In this document: piece after piece, positions 3,701-63,831 of the stretch | Numbering within the stretch: position 1 is the first letter of the stretch | Layout of the letters: each line of letters starts with the position of its first letter | From: an uncultured Thermoplasmatales archaeon | Lineage (GTDB): Archaea > Thermoplasmatota > E2 > DHVEG-1 | Assembly: GCA_964648565.1 (NCBI GenBank) | Contig: CAZYLG010000001.1 | Span: forward strand, 12,315 to 76,314 | Length of the DNA: 64,000 nucleotides | Direction: 5' to 3' | Translations under genes and position numbers: made by a program | Notes under the pieces: model-generated | The model's database searches: none | The model's input: only the letters and a program-made list of their open reading frames with translations | What the model was told of the DNA's origin: nothing

Positions 3701-6700
3701 GTGGGTATATAGTCGTTAATGAAGACACTACATTTCAAATGATGCATTATTCTGAAACCAGTGGAGATGATAATAGAACATGGGGATTTTCTGACGGGGA
3801 ACCGTATACTCCATATAAAATTCATGCTCAGTTAAAAGCCTGGCAAGTTAATACTTATGATATTACTATTAATAAAACAATAACAACTGAACATAATATT
3901 AATCGTCCTCCAACAATTCATATACAAGAACGACAAGCTCCTGGAGCTGATGCTGGAGGATTTCTAAATGGAAACGGTTTATGGAGTCCAAGAAGAATAA
4001 ATTCTATAGTTATTAATGAAGTAACTGGAGCTTCATTTGATTCTGTAAATTATCAACTAACTGTTCCGGTTGGTCTATACGATTTAGATTGGTGGGCGAA
4101 CGCATATGATGTTAACGGTCACAAAACGAGAATATTTGATGTCACTCATAGTATTACCATCGCTGAAGGTTCTAATGAATATGCAGATACAAGTTACCAA
4201 CATATAACTCGTTCTAGAGGCTCTTTTACCCATCAATTCACTGAAGAGACTGTTATAGAATTACAACATGCAGCAGAAAGTGAATCTGGGGATAATCATG
4301 ACCAAGGTTTTCAAATGGCTAGTAGGTTTAATCCTGTAGAATATGAATTATATGCTGAATTAAAGTTACAGCAAGTCGAAGCATTTGAAATAACTAGAAC
4401 ATTTAATATAACTACTGAAAATAATATTAATCGACCACCTAAATTCCATATCCAAGAACGTCAGCCTAATGATATTAATTCATATGAACCAGCTCCATCA
4501 ACAGACAATACATGGATAACGAGAAAAATTAATACTCATGTATTAAATGAGATTACCGGAGCTTCACTTGATGATGTTGCTCATCAATTTACATTACCTC
4601 CTGGTAAATATGACATAGATTGGAGATGCTCATTATATAATCCAGATTATTTTAATTCAAGATTATATGATGTAACCCATATGAATACAGCTATTCAGGG
4701 GTATGGATCACATAATAATGATCAACATACACTAAGTGAAGGACGTCAAACCATAGAGTTAATTGAAGAAACAACATTTGAATTACAATTTATTGTATCA
4801 GATAACGCCGAAAGTTCATGGATCGGAGGTCACCAATCTGGGAATTCACACCCGTCAATATTATATGAATTATATTCAGATATCGAAATTTTTCAAATTG
4901 AAGAACATAATATTACGATTGATCATACTATAACCACTGAACACAACAGTAATCGTCCACCCCGAGTGCATGCTCAGGAAGTATTACCATATGGTACAGG
5001 TGATAGAAATCAAGGACGAGCTGGACCATTTGATGCCAATGATACATGGACAAGAAGAAGAATAAATATGCTTCGAAGTAACGAAATTAACGGAGTATTA
5101 TTTAGTTCAGATACTGGAAAATTTATTTTTCCAGCTGGTAGATATGACGTCGATTGGTATGCAATATCATATGCAGCATATTCTCACACAACACAATTAT
5201 ATGACTCAACTCATAATGAAGTTCTTGTACAAGGTTCGATGGGGTATAATCATGCTTCGTATCCATCTAATACGTATTCTGTTGGAAGAGGATCATTTGA
5301 ATTAACAGAAGAAACTATTATAGAAATTCGTCATATAGCTGATTCAAGTTCTACAGATTCTCATGCAATGGGAGAATCATACCCTGAGAATGTCATTTCT
5401 GGGTTGGAACAACAAATATATGCTGACGTATTATTCCAGCAAACAGAGGCTCTTGAAATAGTTCAAGAATATAATATTACTCAACAACATAATATTAATT
5501 TTCCTCCAACATTGTTTATGGAGGAACGTCAACCACTTGGTACCGATGCTGGTGATATAACACCAACTTGGAGACCACGAAAATTAAATACTATAATTAA
5601 AAATGAAATTACCGGAGCATCATTAGATACTTCAATAAATTCATTTACATTACCACCTGGTAAATATTTTATCAATTCTATTGCTCCTGCAAGATATGTT
5701 GACTTACATCGTACTCGATTATTTAATGAAACAAAATTTATACAGGAATTAATTAGTGATTCAGTAGAAGGAGATAATGACCAAGGTGGAGTTAGTTTCG
5801 CGCATTTAAGTGGTTATATAGAAATATCAGAGGAAACTACATTCCAGATACAACATAAAAGTAATTACCAAAGAAACGGGGATGGAATGGGTCAATCAAC
5901 CGGTATCGATTCAACATTTTATGATGCTGGATATGAAAAATATTGTACCACATACATTCAACAAATAGAAGAATATACTGTTAACAGAGAAATAGATTTT
6001 AGAACAGAATTTAGTCTCAATTCTCCACCACTGTTTTATGCTGAATATAGAGTAGAAAATGGTCAAAATTCAGAAGAAAGTATTCCGGCCAATACATGGA
6101 CTACAAGATTCATCAACACTCCAGTTACAAATGAAATTACAGGAGCGGAATTAAATAATAATGAAATTACTCTTCCTTCTGGACTATATTGGGTAGAGTG
6201 GTCTGCATTGGCCGGAGATGTAGATAGTCATAGATCAAGATTATATGATGTAACTCATAGTAAAACGTTACTTTATGGTAATTCGATGTTTGCTGAGAAT
6301 AGTTATTGGGTTCAAAATACTAGTGATGGACAAGGTAGAATTTATCTTGATGAAGAAACTATGGTACGAATAGAACATATTATGACTCATGATGGTAGTG
6401 GATCGAGAGCCGGATATAATACTAATTTTATAAGTAGTAGTCATGAAACATATAATTGGATAAAAATTGAAGCTACTGAAATCCATGAGATAACGCGAGA
6501 ATATACTCAGTCACAGGACAACAATATTAATCGACCACCAATATTACACGTGCAACACAGAATGCCGGCTGGCCAACATGGTGGCGCACTAGGTATTCAT
6601 AATGACACATGGTATACAAGACCATTGAATACAATTGTTACTAATGAAATAGAAGAAATATCTGGTACTAGAGCGAAAGCAATTGGAACAGAAGATGTAT

Positions 6701-9932: not shown

Positions 9933-10469
9933 ATGAAAGACGGAACTATTGTATTACAGAAAGCTAGTGGACATGCTAAAGGTTTTGAAAAATTAGTATT
10001 AGATGCTATTGTATTTTTTACTGAAAGTCCTTATGTTCATGTGTTATTATATATGGATGATGAATTTTGGGAAAGTACTATATTTATGGATGGAAAATGG
10101 CTTTTTTCTGGCGTACGAACAAGAAAAAATGTACCTCATCAGGTTGCTTTAGAACCAATAAAAGACTTAACAGCTGAAGAAAAAAAGAAAATAAAGAAAT
10201 ATATGGAAAAAATGAGGGATTATAATGTACCTTATAATTTTGCTCGTTTAGTTGCTCTCGCTGTTGTATATCCATTAAAAGGTATTTTCAAACTACTTAA
10301 TTGGGTTCCTTTTAAGGCTGAATTTTTTGGTGAAGTATGTTCTACATTTGTAGATGAAGCATATGAACAAGCTGGAAGGGATTTATTACCTAATGAAATG
10401 GAAGAATATACTGCTCCTGGTGATTTTCTAAAATTAGTGGAATTAGGAACATTTAAAAGAATTAAATAA
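9933..10469 (+). CDS. hypothetical protein, 178 aa; possible permuted papain-like (NlpC/P60/YiiX-like) amidase, a tail-associated lysin candidate
   Basis: GGAG precedes the ATG. A conserved His (HVLLYMDD) lies N-terminal to a Cys in GEVCSTFVDEAYEQAG, the arrangement seen in permuted papain-fold amidases. The similarity is weak. Confidence 0.35.
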   Translation: MKDGTIVLQKASGHAKGFEKLVLDAIVFFTESPYVHVLLYMDDEFWESTIFMDGKWLFSGVRTRKNVPHQVALEPIKDLTAEEKKKIKKYMEKMRDYNVPYNFARLVALAVVYPLKGIFKLLNWVPFKAEFFGEVCSTFVDEAYEQAGRDLLPNEMEEYTAPGDFLKLVELGTFKRIK

Positions 10470-10824
10470 ATCTCCGTAATTTTTCGGTAGCTAAGTCACC
10501 CTTAATAATACTTGCCTCATCCTCGAGAATTCGATATAATTCCTCTTGGTCTATTTTTTTGGTCTCTAACTCCACCATCTTATCAACAATGTGAGATACT
10601 TTTTCTACAGTCATATTTTTATTTTTCAACTTATTTAATTCATCACTATATTTATTCAATTTATAGTTTGTATCATACAACAATTGTTTTGCGGATAAAT
10701 AATCTACAATTAATGCTGTTATTTCATTAGTTATATCTACTTCAAGACCTTTTCTATTTTTAATAGATACTTTACCGCCCTCTCGTATCACTCTTTTTAA
10801 TTGTTTAGTAAAATTATCATTCAT
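10462..10824 (-). CDS. hypothetical coiled-coil protein, 120 aa
   Basis: ORF 2 nt downstream of the gp6-like gene on the minus strand. Its stop overlaps the convergent + gene by 8 nt. Confidence 0.45.
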   Translation of the reverse strand: MNDNFTKQLKRVIREGGKVSIKNRKGLEVDITNEITALIVDYLSAKQLLYDTNYKLNKYSDELNKLKNKNMTVEKVSHIVDKMVELETKKIDQEELYRILEDEASIIKGDLATEKLRRFI

Positions 10825-10825
10825 A

Positions 10826-13102
10826 TTATAATTCTTCGAAATATAAAATTAACCCATGTGTTTTATTTTCTATTACTTCGATACCAGACCATTCATCTTG
10901 AGCTAATACTAAAATTTCATTATATTTTGCATTAATTTGAAATTCTACGTTATCAGCTTCAATCGATGCCAATTCTGAATCAGTAATAACGTCTAGAGCA
11001 TTTTGCCGGTATGCATAATAATCTCTTCCTAGATATGTGATTTCAACTAATCGCACTCCAGGATATGACATCATATACGAACTCAATTCTGTTTTAGAAA
11101 TTGATTGCCCAAATGTTTGTTTATTAATGTTATACTGATTTCTTGTATAATTATAAATATTCTCTTTTACAGTGTTCTTCATATTCTTAAATGTATATAC
11201 TGTAGCTACAACATCATATACTCCATATCGAGCGTCTTTAATATGATTATCAACACACAACATTTTTTGATTCTTAATATATTCTAAATACATATTTTCT
11301 TCAGAAGTATTATTCGGATCCCATCCATCAGCATAGTATGTAATGACAGTTTCATCATTTGTAATATTCGAAGTAGATGTAAGAATAATTTTATTAAATT
11401 CCCAATTAATTGTATAATCACTACCTTTTGTATATTTAGTTTGCCCTGTTTTATCATATATTTCAATTGGAAAATTTGGGTATAAACTGTTTAATGAAGT
11501 GTCTAATGTAATCGCATAATCATCAACTGATGAATCATATGCGAATGTGTGAACAACATTTTGTTTATGTTCTTCCCATGTATCATCAAATACATATAAT
11601 ACCCGTAATATTGTTGGTTCTGTTTCAGATGCTGGTGATGGAATTGTACCACCATCAACTGATTGTATTCTTGAAAATGTAGATTCAGATTCATTAATTG
11701 TATAATCTGTATCTTGTATATATGAATCCATGGCTAACCAATCTGTACTTCCAGTATCATAATGAACAACATACATAGTATTACTTTTATTCATTCTATA
11801 TTTTTTTAAATAAATAGTTTGTTTAGATGGATATAATTCTATATCTTCATAATCAACAACATAATGCGGATTATATGTTTTTGATAATCTAAACAAATCA
11901 TTAAATTCTACCGGACTAGTTTCTTCATACCCTTCTCTTAACGGACAAATATAAATCCATGTATCAAGAGGCGGTAAAAAATAACCATATTCTTGAAATA
12001 TAGCTTCTGGCTCATTGTCTTTACTTACAATTGTAGCATGTAATATTGTTGGATTATTTTCTAATTTTATAATATAATCTTCATTTGTAACTGTTTTATT
12101 CGCAGTTCGAAGTTCAAGAGGTGAACGAAATTTTGCAGTTTCTAAATCTTCAGTATCAGATCCTCCTGCTGCTGATTTAGTATTAGTGAATACTAATGTA
12201 ATCCGCTCACCAGCGAGAGTATATGTTTTAGTACTGTTAATTGTATTTGCTGGAATATTCGTATTTGTACCACCACCAACTCTATATGTTACTTGTAATC
12301 GTTCTCCTTTTTTTGGAATTTCAACTAAATTTTCATGTCCATATACGATATCAACAGAATTATCATTATTAACTTCAACACGATATGGTATTGTTTTTAA
12401 TGATTCATCAACTTCATTCTGTTGGGCTTCAGGAGAAATAAATGAATCTACTTCAAGGTGTTCTTTTCCAGTAGTTAATGATGTTATTCGTATAGAACTA
12501 TCAATAATTGGATTCTGTGTAAGAGTAAACCGTTCATTATTAATACCATCTGACCATATATCATCTTCAGTGACTGTTACACCCTGATAAAACGGAACAC
12601 CACTAATATTATAAATTTTATTTGTTTCATCACCACTCTCCACATGATAAACAAAACTATAATTTGGTTTACCGTCATCTGCCATTTCTATACACTCAAA
12701 TGTTGTTATAATACCATTTTTATCAGGTACATCTAGAGTTTCTAATGGATTGAGATTAAAAGGCGGAGTCCATTTTGCTAATTTTAAATTAACACTAACT
12801 CTCGCAGCTGATGGTAGTGGTGGTTTATAATTGATTAGTTTTAATATATTAATTACACTTTCTCTTTTAGTAGCTGTGGAAATAAACATTTCTCTAGCAT
12901 ACCAATCAGTTTTTGCGGCTACTTTTTCTGCGATGTAAGCACTTAACTCCAACAACATCCTTCCAGCATTCGTTTCAAGAAAATCATTCCAATTTTCTAA
13001 ATATTCTGGGTGTTCGGTAATTGAATTTTCTACATCTGTTATAATTGTATTAAAATCTAGTTCTGTATAACTAAATTTAGGTAGCTTTACTAAATTATCC
13101 AT
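10826..13102 (-). CDS. baseplate wedge protein, T4 gp6 / Baseplate_J-like, 758 aa
   Basis: The N-terminal region (NWNDFLETNAGRMLLELSAYIAEK...FISTATKRESV...YKPPLPSAA) follows the pattern of the T4 gp6 N-terminus (W..EFLD..GSRLNVLCDLLAY...ESF..A..R.SV..GY.P.S..A). It lies in the same orientation as the gp25 homologue, separated from it only by the 533-aa endonuclease-like gene. Confidence 0.65.
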   Translation of the reverse strand: MDNLVKLPKFSYTELDFNTIITDVENSITEHPEYLENWNDFLETNAGRMLLELSAYIAEKVAAKTDWYAREMFISTATKRESVINILKLINYKPPLPSAARVSVNLKLAKWTPPFNLNPLETLDVPDKNGIITTFECIEMADDGKPNYSFVYHVESGDETNKIYNISGVPFYQGVTVTEDDIWSDGINNERFTLTQNPIIDSSIRITSLTTGKEHLEVDSFISPEAQQNEVDESLKTIPYRVEVNNDNSVDIVYGHENLVEIPKKGERLQVTYRVGGGTNTNIPANTINSTKTYTLAGERITLVFTNTKSAAGGSDTEDLETAKFRSPLELRTANKTVTNEDYIIKLENNPTILHATIVSKDNEPEAIFQEYGYFLPPLDTWIYICPLREGYEETSPVEFNDLFRLSKTYNPHYVVDYEDIELYPSKQTIYLKKYRMNKSNTMYVVHYDTGSTDWLAMDSYIQDTDYTINESESTFSRIQSVDGGTIPSPASETEPTILRVLYVFDDTWEEHKQNVVHTFAYDSSVDDYAITLDTSLNSLYPNFPIEIYDKTGQTKYTKGSDYTINWEFNKIILTSTSNITNDETVITYYADGWDPNNTSEENMYLEYIKNQKMLCVDNHIKDARYGVYDVVATVYTFKNMKNTVKENIYNYTRNQYNINKQTFGQSISKTELSSYMMSYPGVRLVEITYLGRDYYAYRQNALDVITDSELASIEADNVEFQINAKYNEILVLAQDEWSGIEVIENKTHGLILYFEEL

Positions 13103-55410: not shown

Positions 55411-56453
55411 TGAATAAAGAAGATTTGTTGTATAAAAATTACAAATCAAGAGAATTTACTTCAGATGATAAAAAATGGTATGAGGAAAAAACATCCGATC
55501 CTCAACATATCCATTTTGGTAATGTTCTTCTTGATGAAATTCCAGAATCACCCCCAGCTATTACCACAGACGTAGTAGAAATTATCAGTGATCTTACTCT
55601 AACTAAAGATTTTACCACAGATGATAATAAGGCATGGTATGCATGTTCTACTCAAGGAATATTGAGTACTCGTTTATACGATTTTATACAACCAGATAAA
55701 AATAAATCGAATAAATATAATATTAAAATTTTTGATAATACAGGTATCCAATTATTAGTTGATGACATTCTATGGGACTTTGATTATCAGAATGGAATAC
55801 TTACGTTTGAAACGGATCCAACATTAGAATACGAAGCTCCTTTCCATTTATACGGGTATCGTTATATTGGTGAAAAAGCATCGAAAGAATCATTAGGTGC
55901 TCAAACATTAGATGAAGCATACAACGGTGGATCAGAAATTAATACAGACAATGGTCCCGTTATTATTACACCATCGGCTGGATCATCAGCATTAAAAATA
56001 ACATCAGTAGATTATGTACCTACAGAAGATTTAACCGGTGATGAATTAATTAACTATAAGGGTATTTTATACATCTATGACACATTTAGAAGTACATGGA
56101 TTAGTCTCGATCGTCAAACTGTCAGTTTCGGTGTTAAGAGAGCAGATGGAATATTCTTGAATTTAAGTAATTTTTCTTCGAATATGAGTGGATGGCCCGC
56201 AATACGTGATGGAATGATTTTAGGTATCACAGCCCAAGCTGCAGGGGGGTATCCCAATAAAAGAATTAAACTATTCAAAAAAGATACCCCAGGACCACTT
56301 TTTGAATTCGATTTAGATGATTTATTTTATGCGAATGGAGATATTGGTATCCCATTCGAGAAAAATGATTTAATTAAGATATTCGTGTCATCAGAATTTA
56401 GCACAGTATATAATCTTATAGTAAATATAGAAATAGGATGGAGAGCTTCTTAA
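55410..56453 (+). CDS. structural protein, 347 aa, sharing a ~80-aa domain with the N-terminus of the 1692-aa protein
   Basis: KAWYACSTQG...DFDYQNGILTFETD...PFHLYGYRYIG aligns with KGWFASSTGS...KWDYAAGYLTIQNS...PFHIYGYEYIG. Confidence 0.55.
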   Translation: MNKEDLLYKNYKSREFTSDDKKWYEEKTSDPQHIHFGNVLLDEIPESPPAITTDVVEIISDLTLTKDFTTDDNKAWYACSTQGILSTRLYDFIQPDKNKSNKYNIKIFDNTGIQLLVDDILWDFDYQNGILTFETDPTLEYEAPFHLYGYRYIGEKASKESLGAQTLDEAYNGGSEINTDNGPVIITPSAGSSALKITSVDYVPTEDLTGDELINYKGILYIYDTFRSTWISLDRQTVSFGVKRADGIFLNLSNFSSNMSGWPAIRDGMILGITAQAAGGYPNKRIKLFKKDTPGPLFEFDLDDLFYANGDIGIPFEKNDLIKIFVSSEFSTVYNLIVNIEIGWRAS

Positions 56454-56815
56454 ATGTTCAAATAATGCAATAATGTTTTTGCTTTTAAAGTAGCATAATC
56501 AGGGTATTGTTTCACATATTCACGCGCATCGAGAAAATAAAGAGCTGCTGAACTTTTAGATTTAATGTAAATCATACTCCACCAAAATCTTTCTTCATCA
56601 GACATCTCGGAATTAAATGATAAAAGTACACTTCCATTTTCACATGGAAAATCAAGTGATCCCCCAATAAAGTAACCACCAGCTTTATCGAAAAAAATGT
56701 CTTTTAATACATCTTTATGCTCACCATTGCTACGTGTCTGCATATCATAAGTATGTGTATCTTGCGCGACAGGGGTTTCATCTTTCTGAACAAAAATTTT
56801 CTTCAACAAATTCAA
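56450..56815 (-). CDS. hypothetical protein, 121 aa. The start is uncertain: the track start overlaps the CCA gene stop by 38 nt, and an internal Met at residue 25 (about 56743) would remove the overlap.
   Basis: Its stop overlaps the stop of the convergent + gene by sharing TTAA. Confidence 0.35.
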   Translation of the reverse strand: MNLLKKIFVQKDETPVAQDTHTYDMQTRSNGEHKDVLKDIFFDKAGGYFIGGSLDFPCENGSVLLSFNSEMSDEERFWWSMIYIKSKSSAALYFLDAREYVKQYPDYATLKAKTLLHYLNI

Positions 56816-58115
56816 GAACTTTCTCCTTATCTGTTAACTCATCTTCTAATTGAAGAATACGCACAGAATCTAAAATTTTTTTAAAAATAGGACCAGGTTT
56901 AAATCCTAATGTAATTAAATCATTGCCATCGATAATTGGATCTGGTAATAATGTTTCCGGGGTGTCAAATTCTTTTTGTTTTTCTCTAATAAATGTCAAC
57001 CATCCAAAAGAATCTTTGCTTTTACCAACACAATCGGCAGCACAAAGAGTCAGTAACTCTTCAATCCATTCCTCGGCAAGCAACATCCTGACAGTAGATT
57101 TTTTCATCTTTTTCACGTCATAGGGTTTCATATGATTTTTTACAAGAAACACTACCTTATCGATAAATTTATTAGAGAACTTAAAACGAGTCAAAATGTC
57201 TTCAGTAATTTCAGCTCCAACATGAGCATGCCGTTTTGAAGTGATGACTCCATCAATGATTTTAGTAGTTGAAGGTTTACCGACATCATGCAGAAGAGCA
57301 GCCCAAATTAGTTCTGTAGAACTATCTTTAGGAAGAGCTTCCATAACCTGAATTGTATGTTCAGAAACCCAAATTTCGGGATGAAATTTTTTATTTTGGC
57401 GACAGGTAAACATTACTTCGATTTCAGCAAGTACGACAAATAAAATGCCTGATTCTCTCAATAATGTAAGAGCTCGTCGAGGCTGGTGATACGAAAATAA
57501 TTTCACTAATTCATCTCTAATTCGTTCTTTTGATACAGTCATGATTTCAAGTGAATTATCACAAATAGCTTTCCATGTTTCTTCTTCAATAGAAAAACCC
57601 AATTTTACAGCAAAACGGATTGCTCTTAGAAGACGAAGTTTATCCTCTTTAATTCTTTCTTCGGGGTTGCCAATAAATCTAATTCTTCTTTCAAGTAAAT
57701 CTTCAATACCGTTTACATAATCTAATGTTTCATCTGTCATAGGATCATAAAATAAACCATTGATGGTAAAATCTCTCCTTTGAGCATCTTTTTCAGCTGT
57801 AGAAAAAGAAATAGAAGAAGGCCGTCTTCCATCTTCATATTCGATATCTGTACGGAATGTCGATACCTCAAAAGAATATCCATTCTCGATGACGTTAATA
57901 ACTCCAAAAGCCTTTCCAATGGGAACCGTTTTTTTGAAAATATGCTCAATTTCTGATGGTTTAGCTGATGTAGCAATATCAATATCAGAAGGATGCGTAC
58001 CGAATTTCATGTCTCTTACAGCACCACCAGCAATATAAGCAGTATGGCCATAATCTTTAAGAGTGGAAATAATAGATGTAGCAATCTGTAGTTCAGTCAT
58101 ATATATATTATACAT
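56778..58115 (-). CDS. cca: CCA-adding tRNA nucleotidyltransferase with a C-terminal HD domain, 445 aa
   Basis: Pol-beta head-domain motifs GGAVRD...DIDIAT and RRDFTING. HD motif LLHDVGKP. Confidence 0.8.
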   Translation of the reverse strand: MYNIYMTELQIATSIISTLKDYGHTAYIAGGAVRDMKFGTHPSDIDIATSAKPSEIEHIFKKTVPIGKAFGVINVIENGYSFEVSTFRTDIEYEDGRRPSSISFSTAEKDAQRRDFTINGLFYDPMTDETLDYVNGIEDLLERRIRFIGNPEERIKEDKLRLLRAIRFAVKLGFSIEEETWKAICDNSLEIMTVSKERIRDELVKLFSYHQPRRALTLLRESGILFVVLAEIEVMFTCRQNKKFHPEIWVSEHTIQVMEALPKDSSTELIWAALLHDVGKPSTTKIIDGVITSKRHAHVGAEITEDILTRFKFSNKFIDKVVFLVKNHMKPYDVKKMKKSTVRMLLAEEWIEELLTLCAADCVGKSKDSFGWLTFIREKQKEFDTPETLLPDPIIDGNDLITLGFKPGPIFKKILDSVRILQLEDELTDKEKVLEFVEENFCSER

Positions 58116-58136
58116 CTTTTATGACAACTGCTAAAA

Positions 58137-59039
58137 TTATCCGAATTTTTTTGTAGTATCAAAAGTAGAATGTAGTGAGGCAACCAATTCTTTTTGTTTC
58201 TCATTCAATTGCTTTGGGTATTCAATATGCACCCGTATAATCATATCTCCTCGAGTATTTTCGGCGATAGGAAATCCTTTATTTTTTATTACAAATGATT
58301 GTCCATCTTTGATACCTTCTGGTATAGAAGTTTTGATGTTCTCACCATCTATATTTTTAATAAAAATTGTATCACCAAGAAGAGCTTGTGTAAAATTAAT
58401 TGTTATTGTACATAGTAAATTATATCCATCGTATTGAAAAAATGGATGAGCTTTTAGCCGTGGATATATTTTTATATCTCCTGCCTTTCCACCGTTCATT
58501 CCATGATGGCCTTCACCTTTTAGTACAATTGGTTTATTAGGATTAAAGCCTTTTTGGATGTTTAATTTAAATGTCCTCTTTTTTTCTACTATAACTCCGT
58601 GTTCATTCTCTCTTCGGGTTATCGGAATATTCATTGATTTACCAGTAAATACATCAATAAAATCCAACCGAACTTCAATTTTAATATCTTTACCTTTTCT
58701 TTTTCTTTGAGATCCGCCCATTCCGAATGTGGTAAAAATATCTTCCCATGTGTCCGTTCCCCCTCCCCATGTGAATCTAACATTAAATCCGCCGAATGGA
58801 TCACCACCCGTAGAAGCAAAAGGATTACCACTTCCACTAAACGGGTTGGGGTTATCATATTCTTTTCGTTTTTGTTCATCAGATAGAATAGAGTACGCTT
58901 CTTGAATTTCTTTAAATTTAGTGTCATCACCCTGAGATGTATCTGGATGATATTGTTTTGAGAGTTTTCTATACGCTTTTTTTATTTCATCTTGTGAGGC
59001 ATTTTTATCTACTCCTAATATTTTATAATAATCTTTCAT
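58137..59039 (-). CDS. DnaJ/CbpA-like J-domain co-chaperone, 300 aa: J domain, G/F-rich linker and C-terminal substrate-binding domains, with no CxxCxGxG zinc finger
   Basis: [33 protein letters not shown] contains the HPD motif. Followed by a Gly/Phe-rich region. Confidence 0.8.
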
Positions 59040-59047
59040 ATAGTTAA

Positions 59048-59311
59048 CTATGCCTTATAATATTCTTCTTTTAATTGTATAGGAATTCCATTTAATGTCA
59101 TTCCATCAACTGTAATATATATTAATCGTGTCATCATTAATTCGGTTTCACCTACAGTATGATATATACTTTCATCTTCGTAGAATGCGTATGTAATAAC
59201 TCCATTTTCTTGTAATAAAAATACCTTCGTTGTATAATCAGACGACCAGAGCATACAGGTCATCGAATCTTGCAGAAATGTTTTTGCTACTAAATCATCT
59301 CGAGCTTTCAT
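59048..59311 (-). CDS. hypothetical protein, 87 aa
   Basis: ORF in an operon-like array. Confidence 0.4.
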
Positions 59312-59312
59312 T

Positions 59313-59645
59313 TTACTGTAAAAAGAATCCTTTTTCTGGAGTCCATATCCATACCTCAGTATCTGGAAGCGTGGATATTACAGTATCTTCAAAATTTTCA
59401 GCAATTTTATCTGAAAACATTCGGATAGCTTTATGAAGACCATGTGGTCCTTCTCCGGAATAACCAACTGCGAATCCTGTGGCTTCATAGGCAGTATGAT
59501 CTTTAAATATAAACGTAGTTAACATAGGAAATCCTGGTTCAATAACAACTCTTTCCAAAATTTTATTGTTGAATTGTTTTAAATTTTGAAAACTAGTTTC
59601 GGTAATTCCATCGACATCACTATTAACTACTGTATATATCATCAT
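59313..59645 (-). CDS. hypothetical protein, 110 aa
   Basis: ORF only. Confidence 0.4.
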   Translation of the reverse strand: MMIYTVVNSDVDGITETSFQNLKQFNNKILERVVIEPGFPMLTTFIFKDHTAYEATGFAVGYSGEGPHGLHKAIRMFSDKIAENFEDTVISTLPDTEVWIWTPEKGFFLQ

Positions 59646-59668
59646 TTACTCCTTTATTATAAATATGC

Positions 59669-59950
59669 TCAATCAATTCTTACTAATATAAATCTGGGTA
59701 GTTCACGTGAAGTATCAAAAATTTTACGTATATTCTCTTCATTGATATTTTTTCCTGTTAAATGTACAATGTGATCTTCTAATTGAGTAAAAGTAGCAGA
59801 AGAAACTTCATAACTTGTGATATAAAATTCTCCTATTATTCGATCCTTAATCTCTTGTACTTTTTCACCGTTAAGTAATAAAATGGCTAAATCGACTAAT
59901 TCGTCTTTACTTAATGAATTCACGTCTTTCATATAATATACCTCGGACAT
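59669..59950 (-). CDS. hypothetical protein, 93 aa
   Basis: ORF only. Confidence 0.4.
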   Translation of the reverse strand: MSEVYYMKDVNSLSKDELVDLAILLLNGEKVQEIKDRIIGEFYITSYEVSSATFTQLEDHIVHLTGKNINEENIRKIFDTSRELPRFILVRID

Positions 59951-60963
59951 TTTCTATTATTTTCAATTAATTGTTTTCTAAATTGTTTTACTTCTTCTGA
60001 ATTCCATATCTGAAAAAAATTATTTGAAAATAAAACACTAATACCATTTTTTTCTTCAAGAAATGAACATGGAAAAAACTCCCCTTTAGCATTAATGTAT
60101 GACGAGAATAATCCAGACTCACATGGCTCTACAAATTCTTCATACATCGAACGATTTTCAATATTATCTAAAAATTTATTTGCCGAACATGAATCAAATC
60201 CTATAGGGACATTATAATTAATAGCTTTATTTACGAGATGTTTAAAACTCTCTTTATTGAGAATATTATGGTTTTCTCCTCGACCTTTTTGCTTAAGAGA
60301 GAGAAAAATAATGGCGTTAACATGTTTATCATCAAACGTATTAATTAAATCAAGGGCTTTCGAATATGTTTCTTGCATGAGGGGAAAATGAATATTAATT
60401 TGTTTCATACCATTTTTATACAGTTTATCGACTAATCGGAATGTTTTTCCTTTATCATAATAAGAGATTGCTACAGCTCCAAAATATGAAGCGATTTTTC
60501 TTGCCATATCATCAGTTAATTCCTCATAACAATGCATTGTAAAATTGGGTATAATACCAGATTTTCGAGCATATTTCGCCATCTCAAAAAAATCAGGATT
60601 AGTATTAATATTCATAATTCCAAATGCAATTTGGGTTAATTGAGGCCCCATTTTATGTAATATTTCTTTAAATTCATCAAATGTCATATTATATGTTGGA
60701 TAATTTCCGTTTGATTTATAACAGAATGAACATTGTCCTTTACATCCTCCATCATAAACAAGTCTATCTTCTGGATAGTTTTCAGAATTGTGGACAGATG
60801 TGCTGATCTCGATGTCAAGTATTTCAGGTCCTATTGGAGAATAATCTGGGTCATCATCAATATCTTTACCCCAACGAATAAAAAGACCGTTGTGTTTATC
60901 AAAATTATAATTATAATTTTTACTTCGTACTATTTTTTCATCTTTAGAATTATATATCTTCAT
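59929..60963 (-). CDS. radical SAM domain protein, 344 aa, with additional C-terminal cysteines
   Basis: CKGQCSFC is the CxxxCxxC [4Fe-4S]/SAM-binding motif. C-terminal cysteines lie in VEPCESG...FPCSF...RKCPRY. Confidence 0.65.
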   Translation of the reverse strand: MKIYNSKDEKIVRSKNYNYNFDKHNGLFIRWGKDIDDDPDYSPIGPEILDIEISTSVHNSENYPEDRLVYDGGCKGQCSFCYKSNGNYPTYNMTFDEFKEILHKMGPQLTQIAFGIMNINTNPDFFEMAKYARKSGIIPNFTMHCYEELTDDMARKIASYFGAVAISYYDKGKTFRLVDKLYKNGMKQINIHFPLMQETYSKALDLINTFDDKHVNAIIFLSLKQKGRGENHNILNKESFKHLVNKAINYNVPIGFDSCSANKFLDNIENRSMYEEFVEPCESGLFSSYINAKGEFFPCSFLEEKNGISVLFSNNFFQIWNSEEVKQFRKQLIENNRKCPRYII

Positions 60964-61142
60964 TATAAACCCTTACAATAGTCAGTAAAACCCTCAAAAC
61001 ACTTTTCACGAGTTGGATAAGAGCCAATCCATTCAGTCCAAGTCTCATCTGAAAAATACCATTTATCGTTTTTCTTTATGAAATAGTCATTTGCGTTATT
61101 AGTTTTTAAAAAGAATTTCGCTATTTCAGTAGTAATATTCAT
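60963..61142 (-). CDS. small hypothetical protein, 59 aa (MNITTEIAKFFLKTNNANDYFIKKNDKWYF...), not in the ORF track
   Basis: ATGA overlap with the upstream gene and a TAATG overlap with the radical-SAM start. This is coupling geometry. Confidence 0.35.
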   Translation of the reverse strand: MNITTEIAKFFLKTNNANDYFIKKNDKWYFSDETWTEWIGSYPTREKCFEGFTDYCKGL

Positions 61143-61438
61143 CCATCAATCCATTTTTGATGCATTTTTTTCATTTCATTATACATAGAATTCAATTGAG
61201 GAACATCAATTTCTTGACGAATAAGATCATAAACAATATCAGAAACATCATCTTCATCGAGAGGTTGATCACATTCAATATTATTTACTTCTTGTCGTAA
61301 TTCTTCGAATTCTTCTCGTGATACAATATATGGTTTCACAAAACGATAAATCTTCTCACTTTCAGTTTCACCAGGAAACGCATTCGCTTTTATAGCTTCT
61401 TCAATGACATCAACTAAATTTTCCATTTTATCCTCCAT
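61139..61438 (-). CDS. hypothetical acidic protein, 99 aa
   Basis: ORF only. Confidence 0.4.
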   Translation of the reverse strand: MEDKMENLVDVIEEAIKANAFPGETESEKIYRFVKPYIVSREEFEELRQEVNNIECDQPLDEDDVSDIVYDLIRQEIDVPQLNSMYNEMKKMHQKWIDG

Positions 61439-61730
61439 TAAATAATTTTATTTCATTCATTACATCTCTTATGTCATTATCAATTAGATACCATATAAAC
61501 TTCTCTATTTCCAATAGATATCGCAATCGTACTATAGTAAAATATGCTATAATACTATTAAGAAATCCAAGTAATATAAGATTTCCTAAAAGACACAATA
61601 TACCTACAGTAATACTGCTCAAAATAGTTAAAATGTATATTGATTTGGTTAATAGCGTTTTCTGTATTTTCATTAATTTAGAATATCCAACGACATCACG
61701 AAGAATTTGTTGATTAGATTTTTTAAACAT
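61428..61730 (-). CDS. small membrane protein, 100 aa, with two predicted transmembrane helices
   Basis: Hydrophobic stretches ILTILSSITVGILCLLGNLILLGFLNSIIAYFTIV. Confidence 0.45.
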   Translation of the reverse strand: MFKKSNQQILRDVVGYSKLMKIQKTLLTKSIYILTILSSITVGILCLLGNLILLGFLNSIIAYFTIVRLRYLLEIEKFIWYLIDNDIRDVMNEIKLFNGG

Positions 61731-61777
61731 ATATCCTCCTTATCCCATCAACTTTGCTTTATTCATATTTAAGAAAT

Positions 61778-61981
61778 TCATATATTGATTATATAATAAT
61801 TGGAACCTATTATTACATCATCGATGTATACAGGAAGTTCATAAAGTACTAAACCAGTGGGAGTAATTGTGAATGAGTCGTCTCCATATAATTTTCTTTT
61901 CGCTGTTTCAGCAACTGTTTCATTTCTACATATTTCTCGAATATAACGAAATGAATCATTCCCCATTACAACTATTTTCAA
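61778..61981 (-). CDS. hypothetical protein, 67 aa
   Basis: ATGA overlap with the upstream DHH gene. Confidence 0.35.
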   Translation of the reverse strand: MKIVVMGNDSFRYIREICRNETVAETAKRKLYGDDSFTITPTGLVLYELPVYIDDVIIGSNYYIINI

Positions 61982-63009
61982 TCTCCCTCGCCTTCTTCTT
62001 CATAATTCCAATTTTCTTTTAATACATTTTTAAACATATGTTTTCGTGTTACTTTCCAGAATGCATCGGAGTTTTTATCATCTAAATCTGTATAAAAATT
62101 TAATGGAATTTTTGCTGCTCCAGCGTTAGATTTCCCGCCTCCATATTCGCCGAATAAATCTTTCATCATTTGATTTACATCTAAACTAACTAGATGAGTT
62201 CTGATTGAAACTTCTAAATATTTTTTACCGGTAATTGCGAATATGACTGCTGTTTGAACTGATTCCATTCGAGTATATTCTTCAGCCAATATTGCTATAA
62301 CATCTCGCTGATCAGTAGGTACAAGACCAATTCCTCCTACAAATACTCCATTCGCTTCTTGTGAATTTCCTTCTTCATGTAATTTAATTCTTTTATCATA
62401 TAAATATCGAGGCAATGGATAATTCATGGCTTTTTGAAGGACATCTTTATCTGCTAATTCTAATAACTCTTGATATGCTACGAAATCATTTTTAGTCATA
62501 TGCTCGCTAATTAAGTCATTTGTATCGGTTCTAATACCAAGAAGTAAAGCGGTATATACATCAGAATGTTCAGTAGATATCTCTATTTTATATTCTTTTA
62601 ATAATTCCCATACTAATGTTGCGTTGGCTCCGTAATTTACGTCAATAATTTTATTTTTTGCTTTAGAGTCACTTTTATGATGATCAATGACCAGTGATGG
62701 ATTACGTGCTATAGAATTATGTTCAGTACAATCAACACAAATTTCTATTGAATCTTCAGTTAATTTTTCTTTTTTTATAATTGGTATACTCAATAAATTA
62801 ACGATAGTTTTATTTTGTGGGTGGGAGATATCTCCAGAATATATGATTTTACAATCGTAATCATAATACTGAAGCAATAGAGCTATTCCGAGAGCTGATC
62901 CAACTGCATCTGGATCAGGAGCTGGATGTACTATGATGTTAATGTTTGGTTCTTCTATTTCTTTTAATGTTTCGAGAAAACTATCTACAATTGTTTTTTT
63001 ATTCTTCAT
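61978..63009 (-). CDS. DHH/DHHA1-family phosphoesterase, NrnA-like nanoRNase/pAp phosphatase type, 343 aa
   Basis: N-terminal HPAPDPDAVGSALG and DHH (VIDHHKS). The C-terminal DHHA1 motif is GGGKSNAGAAKI, which is GGGH..AAG-like. Confidence 0.7.
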   Translation of the reverse strand: MKNKKTIVDSFLETLKEIEEPNINIIVHPAPDPDAVGSALGIALLLQYYDYDCKIIYSGDISHPQNKTIVNLLSIPIIKKEKLTEDSIEICVDCTEHNSIARNPSLVIDHHKSDSKAKNKIIDVNYGANATLVWELLKEYKIEISTEHSDVYTALLLGIRTDTNDLISEHMTKNDFVAYQELLELADKDVLQKAMNYPLPRYLYDKRIKLHEEGNSQEANGVFVGGIGLVPTDQRDVIAILAEEYTRMESVQTAVIFAITGKKYLEVSIRTHLVSLDVNQMMKDLFGEYGGGKSNAGAAKIPLNFYTDLDDKNSDAFWKVTRKHMFKNVLKENWNYEEEGEGD

Positions 63010-63348
63010 TTATGACTCCAATGCTGTTAATACTATTGATTCGAATTCACCAGTTTTCATCAATTGTTTTACAGTAATTTTTGAAGACTTTTCAGCAACA
63101 GAATACGTTGATAATGGATCAATAGTAATTTCATATTTCCCTAATACATTATCCACCTTATAATTCTTAGGAGTAAAATATGCTTTTGCATGGAGAAATT
63201 GATGGGTATCAATGTCTGGAGTATTATATAATTTTATTCCATCCAATAGTTTCCCGCGAATAAACGGAAACATAAAAAAATCACCTACATTTACAATAAT
63301 TACTTCCATTTCTTGATTCATTTGTTGGATAAGAATATCAAATTTCAT
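63010..63348 (-). CDS. hypothetical protein, 112 aa
   Basis: ORF abutting the DHH gene. Confidence 0.4.
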   Translation of the reverse strand: MKFDILIQQMNQEMEVIIVNVGDFFMFPFIRGKLLDGIKLYNTPDIDTHQFLHAKAYFTPKNYKVDNVLGKYEITIDPLSTYSVAEKSSKITVKQLMKTGEFESIVLTALES

Positions 63349-63592
63349 TAATATCTCCTTTGAGCAGCATTTTTGCTACTTCTACTTCTATATCAATTAT
63401 CTTGTACATATCTGGGATATTATTGAGTAAAACCTTATCCTTAATCATTTTTTCTAATCGTTTCTCAGATATTGAATTTCTAAAGATATTGGCTTCTTTA
63501 TCTATTATAAACGTTTTATTTCCAATAATAATACCATATGACGGGAACTGTTTATACCCATTATAATGTGGACTAAAGTAATAATATTGCAT
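63338..63592 (-). CDS. hypothetical protein, 84 aa
   Basis: Overlapping coupled ORF. Confidence 0.4.
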   Translation of the reverse strand: MQYYYFSPHYNGYKQFPSYGIIIGNKTFIIDKEANIFRNSISEKRLEKMIKDKVLLNNIPDMYKIIDIEVEVAKMLLKGDINEI

Positions 63593-63831
63593 TAAAATCC
63601 TTTATGAGATAATAGTAATTTTGCCTTATCTGTATTCGAGGCAATAGTTATTTTCCCAGTTTGTACCATATCAAAAAACTCCTCACCATTAAGTGTTTGA
63701 GTATCACTATTAGGAATACATTTAATATATATAATGAATTCTTTTTCTCTTTTTTCGACGTTTGTCACTTTTATATATTGTACATCTTTAAGGATTCCAT
63801 TTTTCACTTTATAAATTTCAACTGGACTCAT
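63592..63831 (-). CDS. hypothetical protein, 79 aa
   Basis: AAGGAAG precedes the ATG on the minus strand. Confidence 0.4.
   Translation of the reverse strand: MSPVEIYKVKNGILKDVQYIKVTNVEKREKEFIIYIKCIPNSDTQTLNGEEFFDMVQTGKITIASNTDKAKLLLSHKGF

Follow-up and report, generated by a model that had tools for sequence, protein, structure and literature searches.

The 64,000 nucleotides (nt) of contig CAZYLG010000001.1 analysed here (the window) belong to a tailed phage and carry a gene for a phosphoesterase of 343 amino acids (aa) with DHH and DHHA1 domains. The protein represents a distinct and previously uncharacterised DHH/DHHA1 subfamily with an altered substrate-binding motif, while the general kind of enzyme is already known. 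The most informative new result is that genes of this subfamily are embedded in phage islands of tRNA and RNA-repair genes, which offers a testable alternative to the idea, raised in a preliminary description of the window, that the enzyme depletes nucleotide signals of host immunity. This context makes trimming or recycling of short RNAs or tRNA ends the likelier putative role, and it is tentatively proposed that the enzyme hydrolyses short RNA or RNA termini within a tRNA/RNA-repair island of huge phages.

The gene is an ATG-started open reading frame (ORF) on the minus strand (positions of this and other features are listed in Table 1). Both Pfam domains of the protein score above their cut-offs, which bears out the DHH/DHHA1 architecture first described, and the two strings quoted in its favour, VIDHHKS (residues 107-113) and GGGKSNAGAAKI, are present in the translation. 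The margin of the DHHA1 domain over its cut-off is small and many homologues give only a weak or faint DHHA1 match; the two-lobe alpha/beta fold with its linker is confirmed by an AlphaFold model built from the homologue alignment (mean predicted local distance difference test score 91.6) and by Foldseek comparison. Conservation figures are taken from an alignment of 40 homologues that are 36-77% identical. The metal-binding catalytic centre is intact, and the sequence thus predicts a catalytically competent, divalent-metal-dependent phosphoesterase.

The DHHA1 lobe departs from the canonical pattern at the position expected to touch the substrate. Here the motif region reads GGGKSNAGAA, so that the quoted string stands but the motif within it is GGGK and not the canonical GGGH. 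At the fourth position of the motif the aligned homologues carry K, T, S or R, none of them H, and the histidine is also absent from the closest cellular clade. In Bacillus subtilis NrnA the GGGH histidine touches the phosphodiester backbone of the substrate while glycine carbonyls hold the base (PMC5593865). Other residues of the lobe are invariant (R247, T253, R270, G291 and G292). The RxRxR substrate-binding patch is missing and R270 alone is present, in the segment E-V-S-I-R, where it corresponds to a single DHHA1 beta-strand arginine also conserved in RecJ; since the patch is specific to Bacillus-type NrnA, its loss is compatible with membership in the wider NrnA-like group. A further motif, GDISHPQNKT, is specific to the subfamily (N66 invariant; G59, S62, H63, P64, Q65 and T68 at least 90% conserved) and, judging from its place in the fold topology, probably lies near the active site.

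Foldseek matches the model to solved members of the fold with E values of 1e-17 to 3.5e-21 and template modelling (TM) scores of 0.6-0.7. The best match is TM1595 (E 3.5e-21, TM 0.65-0.70), and the others include the GdpP catalytic domain, DhhP, the Deinococcus radiodurans RecJ-like protein, NrnA/Pde2 and Rv2837c. At the sequence level the relationship is distant, with 15-19% identity to solved relatives and weak matches (best E 2.5e-5) from a single-sequence search of the PDB. The family profile searched against solved proteins returns GdpP as the sole full-length match (9n0l, E 6.6e-14; 5xsi, E 5.7e-13), NrnA over the DHH lobe only (1e-12) and family II pyrophosphatases over the DHH domain (1e-11 to 1e-12), and lies about equally far from GdpP, NrnA and the pyrophosphatases. 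The highest NCBIfam score, 38.4 bits, also belongs to the family II Mn-dependent pyrophosphatase model, and such matches could suggest a pyrophosphatase, exopolyphosphatase or other phosphoesterase acting outside nucleic acids, for example one that clears the pyrophosphate of aminoacylation, CCA addition or transcription. However, this score is far under the family cut-off of 283, the matches are limited to the DHH lobe while the C-terminal lobe is DHHA1 and not DHHA2, and the family II enzymes fit the model poorly (TM about 0.47, root-mean-square deviation above 12 Å) compared with nanoRNases and phosphodiesterases, all of which renders an activity of this kind highly improbable.

Stand-alone DHH/DHHA1 enzymes (NrnA, Staphylococcus aureus Pde2, Mycobacterium tuberculosis Rv2837c/CnpB, TM1595, the D. 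radiodurans RecJ-like protein and Borrelia burgdorferi DhhP) are alike in size, at about 320-340 aa, and have in common with the window protein the DHH-linker-DHHA1 fold and four intact DHH metal-binding motifs. The window subfamily differs from the stand-alone nanoRNases in the residue that replaces the GGGH histidine, in lacking RxRxR and in its extra motif, GEISHPQNKT in the family at large. Low identity, the extra motif, the histidine-less GGGH and a score of 30.4 bits against a cut-off of 350 for the NrnA equivalog NF053633 together set the protein apart from canonical NrnA; the earlier NrnA/GdpP-type assignment holds for the stand-alone fold and the intact catalytic motifs. The S-x-R-S and GGG segments of GdpP align with the window protein, but GdpP retains GGGH and carries N-terminal transmembrane helices along with a PAS and a degenerate GGDEF domain, whereas the window protein consists of DHH and DHHA1 only. 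Solved relatives of this fold favour linear molecules of two or three nucleotides as well as short oligonucleotides (PMC11229311; PMC5593865).

Homologues number 360 in one database and 566 cluster representatives (E<=1e-30) in another. Numbers of this order, together with the confident model and its structural matches, put the domain assignment well beyond chance. No PHROG family matches the DHH protein, and tblastn against 50,697 phage records finds a relative in six, every one below 28% identity. The DHH phosphodiesterases described from jumbo phages (Iyer et al. 2021) and those of Pseudomonas phage PaBG, Bacillus phage Hakuna, Erwinia phage PhiEaH1 and Klosneuvirus are of similar size and are predicted to act against nucleotide signals, but they belong to a different DHH lineage, with remote structural similarity to the window protein (best E 3e-10, TM of at most 0.47). 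Cellular relatives at 30-38% identity occur in Myxococcota, in Acidobacteriota/Holophagae and on two complete Ca. Uabimicrobium chromosomes. Because these carry ISHPQN[KR]T together with a histidine-less G-G-K, the phage genes are placed by sequence as a branch of an old cellular subfamily. A more distant group from Desulfobacterales and Planctomycetota, and TrkA-N fusion proteins of Archaeoglobales, retain 'GGH', and the Archaeoglobales fusions have the related motif GEISHQENK. In these fusions (P0206, P0220, P0243 and P0224, from Archaeoglobales and related metagenome proteins annotated 'potassium transporter TrkA') a TrkA-N domain, an RCK-type nucleotide-binding domain, is N-terminal to DHH/DHHA1, and they may be ligand-regulated phosphodiesterases. 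Apart from TrkA-N and one disordered N-terminal extension no fusion partners were found among family members, and none of the fusions involves RNA repair or defence. Phage-like DHH genes (36-38% identity) are also present on three contigs of 24-108 kb (L104-L106) from metagenome-assembled genomes labelled Promethearchaeota and Woesearchaeota, which may be viral contigs binned into archaeal genomes.

The comparison of genomic settings covered 21 distinct phage loci: the window, the loci L001-L020 once duplicates were removed, and L101-L103. Immediate neighbours differ between loci, but a single theme predominates. In 15 of them the DHH gene has at least one gene of the tRNA, CCA, HAD_SAK or RNA ligase/kinase kinds no more than 10 kb away. 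Among 144 neighbouring proteins, the most recurrent Pfam family is PF18143 (HAD_SAK_2, 'HAD domain in Swiss Army Knife RNA repair proteins'), which is found 0.7-1.2 kb from the DHH gene in L009, L012 and L017 and 4.5 kb from it in L103; the stand-alone HAD of HAD_SAK has been assigned to 3'-phosphate removal in jumbo-phage RNA repair (Iyer et al., PMC7824862). CCA-adding enzymes are encoded less than 10 kb from the DHH gene in the window, in L006 and in L020, where the DHH protein is 31% identical to that of the window. Directly upstream of the DHH gene in L016 (33% identical) are genes for an RNA ligase, a ThiF-like protein and a fusion of HD-phosphatase and P-loop kinase. These form a compact cassette (positions 3971-6496; RNA ligase PF09414, ThiF family, HD-phosphatase/AAA_33 kinase) in which the ThiF-family member is unexpected for RNA repair. 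Further neighbours related to translation are initiation factor 3 (IF3), an aminoacyl-tRNA synthetase, peptide deformylase and PhoH-PIN.

In 6 of 20 distinct loci the DHH gene has a tRNA gene upstream at a distance of 16-601 nt (25 nt in L001, 94 in L004, 601 in L010, 49 in L017, 378 in L102 and 16 in L103), as part of arrays of up to 19 tRNAs. Compared with random genes from the same 20-kb loci, a conservative within-locus null, upstream gaps of at most 100 nt were observed in four loci where 0.86 were expected (P about 0.004), and gaps of at most 650 nt in six where 1.9 were expected (P about 0.001). The 3' CCA is encoded in one of eight tRNAs in L001, in none of 14 in L004 and in two of 19 in L017, as against 8/8 in L010, 2/3 in L102 and 14/15 in L103. 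Most tRNAs of L001, L004 and L017 therefore depend on 3' processing and on the addition of CCA. In phage T4, maturation of tRNAs with no encoded CCA calls for 3' trimming by a host nuclease, RNase BN, ahead of CCA addition. Tandem duplicates (Phe x2, Lys x3, Glu/Pro x3) are seen in the huge-phage tRNA arrays.

If the protein works as its solved relatives do, a two-metal centre formed by D32, D34, D93, D109-H110-H111 and D162 would sit in the DHH lobe, and the mobile DHHA1 lobe (R247, R270 and G-G-G-K293) would deliver a short phosphorylated nucleotide to it as substrate. Candidate substrates are nanoRNAs, tRNA 3' trailers, damaged CCA ends of tRNAs and leader or spacer fragments from the processing of tRNA arrays, possibly also 3'-phosphate ends. 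The products would feed the CCA-adding and RNA-repair enzymes of the phage, and nucleotides would go back to the pool. The fold, the active-site motifs, the place in the subfamily and the genomic associations are established by the data, whereas the choice of substrate, the polarity of attack and any partnership with the CCA-adding enzyme are inferred. In the window the CCA enzyme is encoded 3.9 kb downstream of the DHH gene in the same gene block, and it is a candidate functional partner.

There is a precedent for such a partnership, as bacterial A-adding enzymes and Acanthamoeba Ntr4 carry at the N-terminus a DHH/DHHA1 extension, described as 'not clarified yet' in function (PMC7947759). In A-adding enzymes the DHH/DHHA1 part is fused to a class II nucleotidyltransferase, while in the window the two are separate genes of one block. 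The NCBIfam model NF041569 (A-adding tRNA nucleotidyltransferase, 880 aa) is matched by the DHH ORF at model positions 85-284 and by the window CCA enzyme at 469-697. The DHH ORF scores 22.6 bits (E 2.7e-5; the cut-off is 1440), a weak match, and the likeness is therefore an analogy of association and not evidence of orthology. The setting also allows a narrower proposal, in which the protein would be a dedicated tRNA-end nuclease or phosphatase that trims 3' trailers or damaged CCA ends (or heals 3'-phosphate ends) of phage and host tRNAs and so makes the substrate of the CCA enzyme, as a free-standing counterpart of the A-adding DHH/DHHA1 module and part of the huge-phage toolkit against tRNA-targeting defences. 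In this specific form the idea is rather unlikely.

Several observations weigh against a role in tRNA or RNA-end metabolism. Six of the 21 loci show none of the associations with tRNA, CCA, HAD_SAK or RNA ligase/kinase genes, and the window itself is without a tRNA gene, a HAD_SAK gene or an RNA ligase. The tRNA adjacency amounts to about four independent lineages, because L001 and L004 share synteny, as do L010 and L102, and its statistics rest on the within-locus null and not on a genome-wide background. Similarity to the A-adding module is no stronger than that to NrnA or the pyrophosphatases, and characterised NrnA-type enzymes favour substrates of 2-5 nt and not tRNA-sized RNAs. The cellular relatives are not found near tRNA or repair genes (one tRNA gene across 27 loci). 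Moreover, other neighbour themes recur, with replication and recombination genes in L101, NADAR and ADP-ribosylglycohydrolase in L102, and NUDIX, NAD salvage and thymidylate synthase genes elsewhere, so the island may just collect auxiliary genes. A separate scan of IMG/VR for CCA enzymes gave 361 loci, and among the best 80 of these one contig overlaps the 17 DHH contigs; many phages thus have a CCA enzyme without this DHH protein, a scan that speaks to this direction of the association and not to its converse.

Some of these neighbours, such as the thymidylate synthase, dihydrofolate reductase, adenylate kinase, IMP dehydrogenase, NUDIX and ribonucleotide reductase genes of several loci, would suit a generic nanoRNase/pAp phosphatase that salvages RNA (and short DNA) oligonucleotides of phage and host as mononucleotides for a very large genome, with no tie to tRNA. 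The fold matches nanoRNases, and family members are named nanoRNase/pAp phosphatase or NrnA by the Joint Genome Institute (JGI) and the NCBI annotation pipeline PGAP, which gives the latter name to one of the cellular relatives. Synteny among 56 cellular relatives is kept within phyla only, and their neighbours are of the housekeeping kind (MurJ, TPR proteins, PilZ, GH3, a metallo-beta-lactamase (MBL) hydrolase, sirohaem synthase), as would fit a general nanoRNase; the synteny itself points to no specific function. Salvage nevertheless leaves the tRNA adjacency and the repeated proximity of HAD_SAK, CCA and RNA-ligase genes unexplained; hosts normally own a nanoRNase, and both the distance from the NrnA equivalog and the absence of the GGGH histidine and the RxRxR patch speak against it, so that general salvage with no tRNA connection is a minority possibility.

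The replication genes of L101, where the DHH gene stands between those for RecA, a 5'-3' flap exonuclease and DNA polymerase III alpha, would suit a RecJ-like exonuclease that digests single-stranded DNA during replication or recombination of the phage or in the breakdown of host DNA. The best match among the BFVD predicted viral structures is annotated RecJ (E 3e-10, TM 0.45), and NrnA-like enzymes are able to digest short single-stranded DNA (PMC11229311). A replication context is seen in this one locus of the 21, however, the matches to nanoRNase and phosphodiesterase folds (E 1e-21) are far better than that to viral RecJ, and the protein has neither the extra domains of RecJ nor its length of about 550 aa or more; a RecJ-like function is very unlikely.

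The preliminary description had suggested depletion of signals used by CBASS (cyclic-oligonucleotide-based antiphage signalling), Pycsar or type III CRISPR systems, with nucleotide recycling as a fallback. In its broadest form this would be the hydrolysis of cyclic di- or oligonucleotides, of their linear products (pApA, pGpG) or of non-canonical signals such as S-adenosylmethionine-AMP (SAM-AMP), blunting abortive-infection signalling. The idea is not new, having been published as a prediction for the DHH enzymes of jumbo phages (Iyer et al. 2021, PMC7824862). It agrees with the GdpP catalytic domain being the sole full-length solved match of the family profile and among the top fold matches, and GGGK and the extra SHPQN motif are compatible with an unusual substrate. 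Counter-defence-type neighbours occur in some loci: NADAR and ADP-ribosylglycohydrolase in L102, and NUDIX, an HD_4 alarmone hydrolase, nicotinate phosphoribosyltransferase and NAD synthase elsewhere. In L102 (positions 10001-12365) the genes for DHH, NADAR and ADP-ribosylglycohydrolase are arranged in succession, their stop and start codons overlapping, and IF3, PhoH-PIN, RecD-like helicase and NUDIX genes are nearby; this cluster may be a module for the reversal of ADP-ribosylation linked to the DHH gene.

CRISPR-associated DHH/DHHA1 enzymes that act on immune signals of type III systems are known: Bacteroides fragilis NrN degrades SAM-AMP and not pApA or cA2-6 (PMC10600005), and Sulfolobus MAD degrades cyclic tetra-adenylate (cA4). 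As NrN is strictly specific for SAM-AMP, the fold cannot identify the substrate. In contrast to NrN and MAD, the 21 phage loci have no CorA or cas neighbours, and there is no membrane association. The DHH/DHHA1 fold of the window protein is also unlike that of the phage anti-signalling proteins Acb1, Apyc1 and AcrIII-1. These have 2H, metallo-beta-lactamase and DUF1874 folds, respectively. The DHH protein has no PADLOC or PHROG match (PADLOC v2 was not checked for models of NrN or MAD), no repeated linkage to genes known to act against CBASS, Pycsar or type III systems was seen, and the closest cellular relatives, with the same motifs, lie in housekeeping contexts (MurJ, TPR, PilZ) and not in defence islands. 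Stand-alone enzymes of this fold generally favour linear over cyclic dinucleotides (PMC11229311), a literature search found no experimental report of a phage DHH protein acting on immune signals, and tRNA and RNA repair is the dominant contextual signal. Signal destruction is accordingly doubtful and has no specific support, and the recycling fallback is nearer to the favoured interpretation, in which short RNA or RNA termini would be hydrolysed.

The phage origin proposed for the gene is upheld. In the window, a protein of 3055 aa has matches to tail-fibre PHROGs and a second protein has one to a baseplate wedge subunit PHROG; IMG/VR viral contigs as long as 476 kb and a JGI contig of 732 kb contain relatives, and genes for a Gp23-type capsid and a tail sheath are present at two of the related loci. 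The phage is known from metagenomes only; megablast of 20 kb of the window against the 50,697 phage records gave no match. On a related huge-phage-like contig (L002 99-1829, L003 419-2149; 93-268 kb) there is a eukaryote-type topoisomerase IB (Topoisom_I_N, Topoisom_I, Topo_C_assoc), which prompted consideration of a giant eukaryotic virus; this was rejected on account of the baseplate, tail-fibre, sheath and Gp23 genes. The 3055-aa protein matches tail-fibre phrog_24210 in nine separate stretches, has a DUF5013 segment and resembles a highly repetitive tail fibre. The window also holds a giant ORF of 3615 aa and, adjoining the baseplate wedge gene, a 533-aa protein with an unusual combination of homing/HNH endonuclease PHROGs and DUF7487, Mom-family and Vsr-like segments.

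Table 1. Features of the 64,000-nt window discussed in the text
Feature	Position	Strand	Basis and remarks
Complete DHH/DHHA1 phosphoesterase gene, 'SHPQN / GGGK' subfamily	61978..63009	-	ORF list, Pfam, AlphaFold, Foldseek
DHH catalytic domain, residues 22-159	62533..62946	-	Pfam PF01368, E 1.6e-10, 41.8 bits (cut-off 28.1)
DHHA1 substrate-binding domain, residues 235-307	62089..62307	-	Pfam PF02272, E 1.3e-6, 29.3 bits (cut-off 25.9)
Motif I HPAPDPDAVGS, residues 28-38, metal-ligand aspartates	62896..62928	-	P31, D32, P33, D34 invariant in 40 homologues
Subfamily-specific motif GDISHPQNKT, residues 59-68, loop after DHH-domain strand 2	62806..62835	-	Alignment
Motif II CVDCT, residues 91-95	62725..62739	-	D93 invariant
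Motif III DHH, residues 109-111, catalytic signature	62677..62685	-	D109, H110, H111 invariant
Motif IV GIRTDT, residues 158-163	62521..62538	-	D162, T163 invariant
Degenerate GGGH motif GGGKSNAGAAKI, residues 290-301, K293 replacing the canonical histidine	62107..62142	-	Alignment
Co-directional 15-gene block including DHH, radical SAM/SPASM, DnaJ and CCA enzyme	56450..63831	-	ORF list
CCA-adding tRNA nucleotidyltransferase (class II) with HD domain	56778..58115	-	Pfam PolyA_pol, PolyA_pol_RNAbd, HD, tRNA_NucTran2_2
DnaJ, 300 aa	58137..59039	-	Pfam
Radical SAM/SPASM protein, function unknown	59929..60963	-	Pfam; phrog_7293
Tail-fibre-like protein, 3055 aa	763..9930	+	phrog_24210, DUF5013
Protein with endonuclease-like segments, 533 aa	13095..14696	-	Homing/HNH endonuclease PHROGs, DUF7487
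Giant ORF, 3615 aa	18006..28853	+	

The neighbours named in the preliminary description (CCA enzyme, radical S-adenosylmethionine (SAM) protein and DnaJ) are real and lie on the same strand as the DHH gene. Every gap in the 15-gene block is at most 47 nt and most of its genes overlap; no terminator-like site was found on its minus strand, and the block is probably a single transcription unit. Promoter-like and terminator-like sites are no commoner than in shuffled sequence, and an Rfam scan of the window found no structured RNA. The CCA enzyme also matches the tRNA nucleotidyltransferase PHROG (E 5e-76) and the NCBIfam CCA model (261 bits). In the DnaJ protein the J domain and the C-terminal domain are matched, the DnaJ model aligning in two stretches with the central zinc-finger region missing, and the protein also scores well against the model of the curved DNA-binding protein CbpA. 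The small ORFs that flank the DHH gene (112 aa and 67 aa) are not kept beside it elsewhere.

The radical SAM/SPASM gene adjoins the DHH gene in L007 and in L002/L003 and is thus a recurrent neighbour in closer relatives, with the order inverted. Homologues of about 43% identity, KP15 gp135 among them, occur in 172 cultured T4-like phages, whose hosts include Klebsiella, Enterobacter and Cronobacter; every one is annotated hypothetical, and in Klebsiella phage KP15 the surrounding genes are hypothetical as well; a sequence search of the PDB gave no match. In L002 (5776-7882) and L003 (5777-7882) the homologue is split into N-terminal (171 aa) and C-terminal (241 aa) parts by a DUF7487 endonuclease-like gene, and a SufBD iron-sulphur assembly gene comes next. 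The split may reflect insertion of a homing endonuclease or an intron.

The tRNA arrays, CCA-adding enzymes and RNA-repair genes of huge phages are thought to sustain translation when hosts attack tRNAs. The subfamily is large (about 566 representatives), is absent from phage catalogues and has an altered motif at the substrate contact, so that one biochemical characterisation would annotate many genes. Degradation of an immune signal, if true, would make this the first phage enzyme of DHH fold directed against CBASS or type III systems. If instead the enzyme acts on tRNA or other RNA ends, an uncharacterised enzymatic step would be added to the translation toolkit of huge phages, and this could explain the DHH/DHHA1 module of some bacterial A-adding enzymes, a fusion known since 2001.

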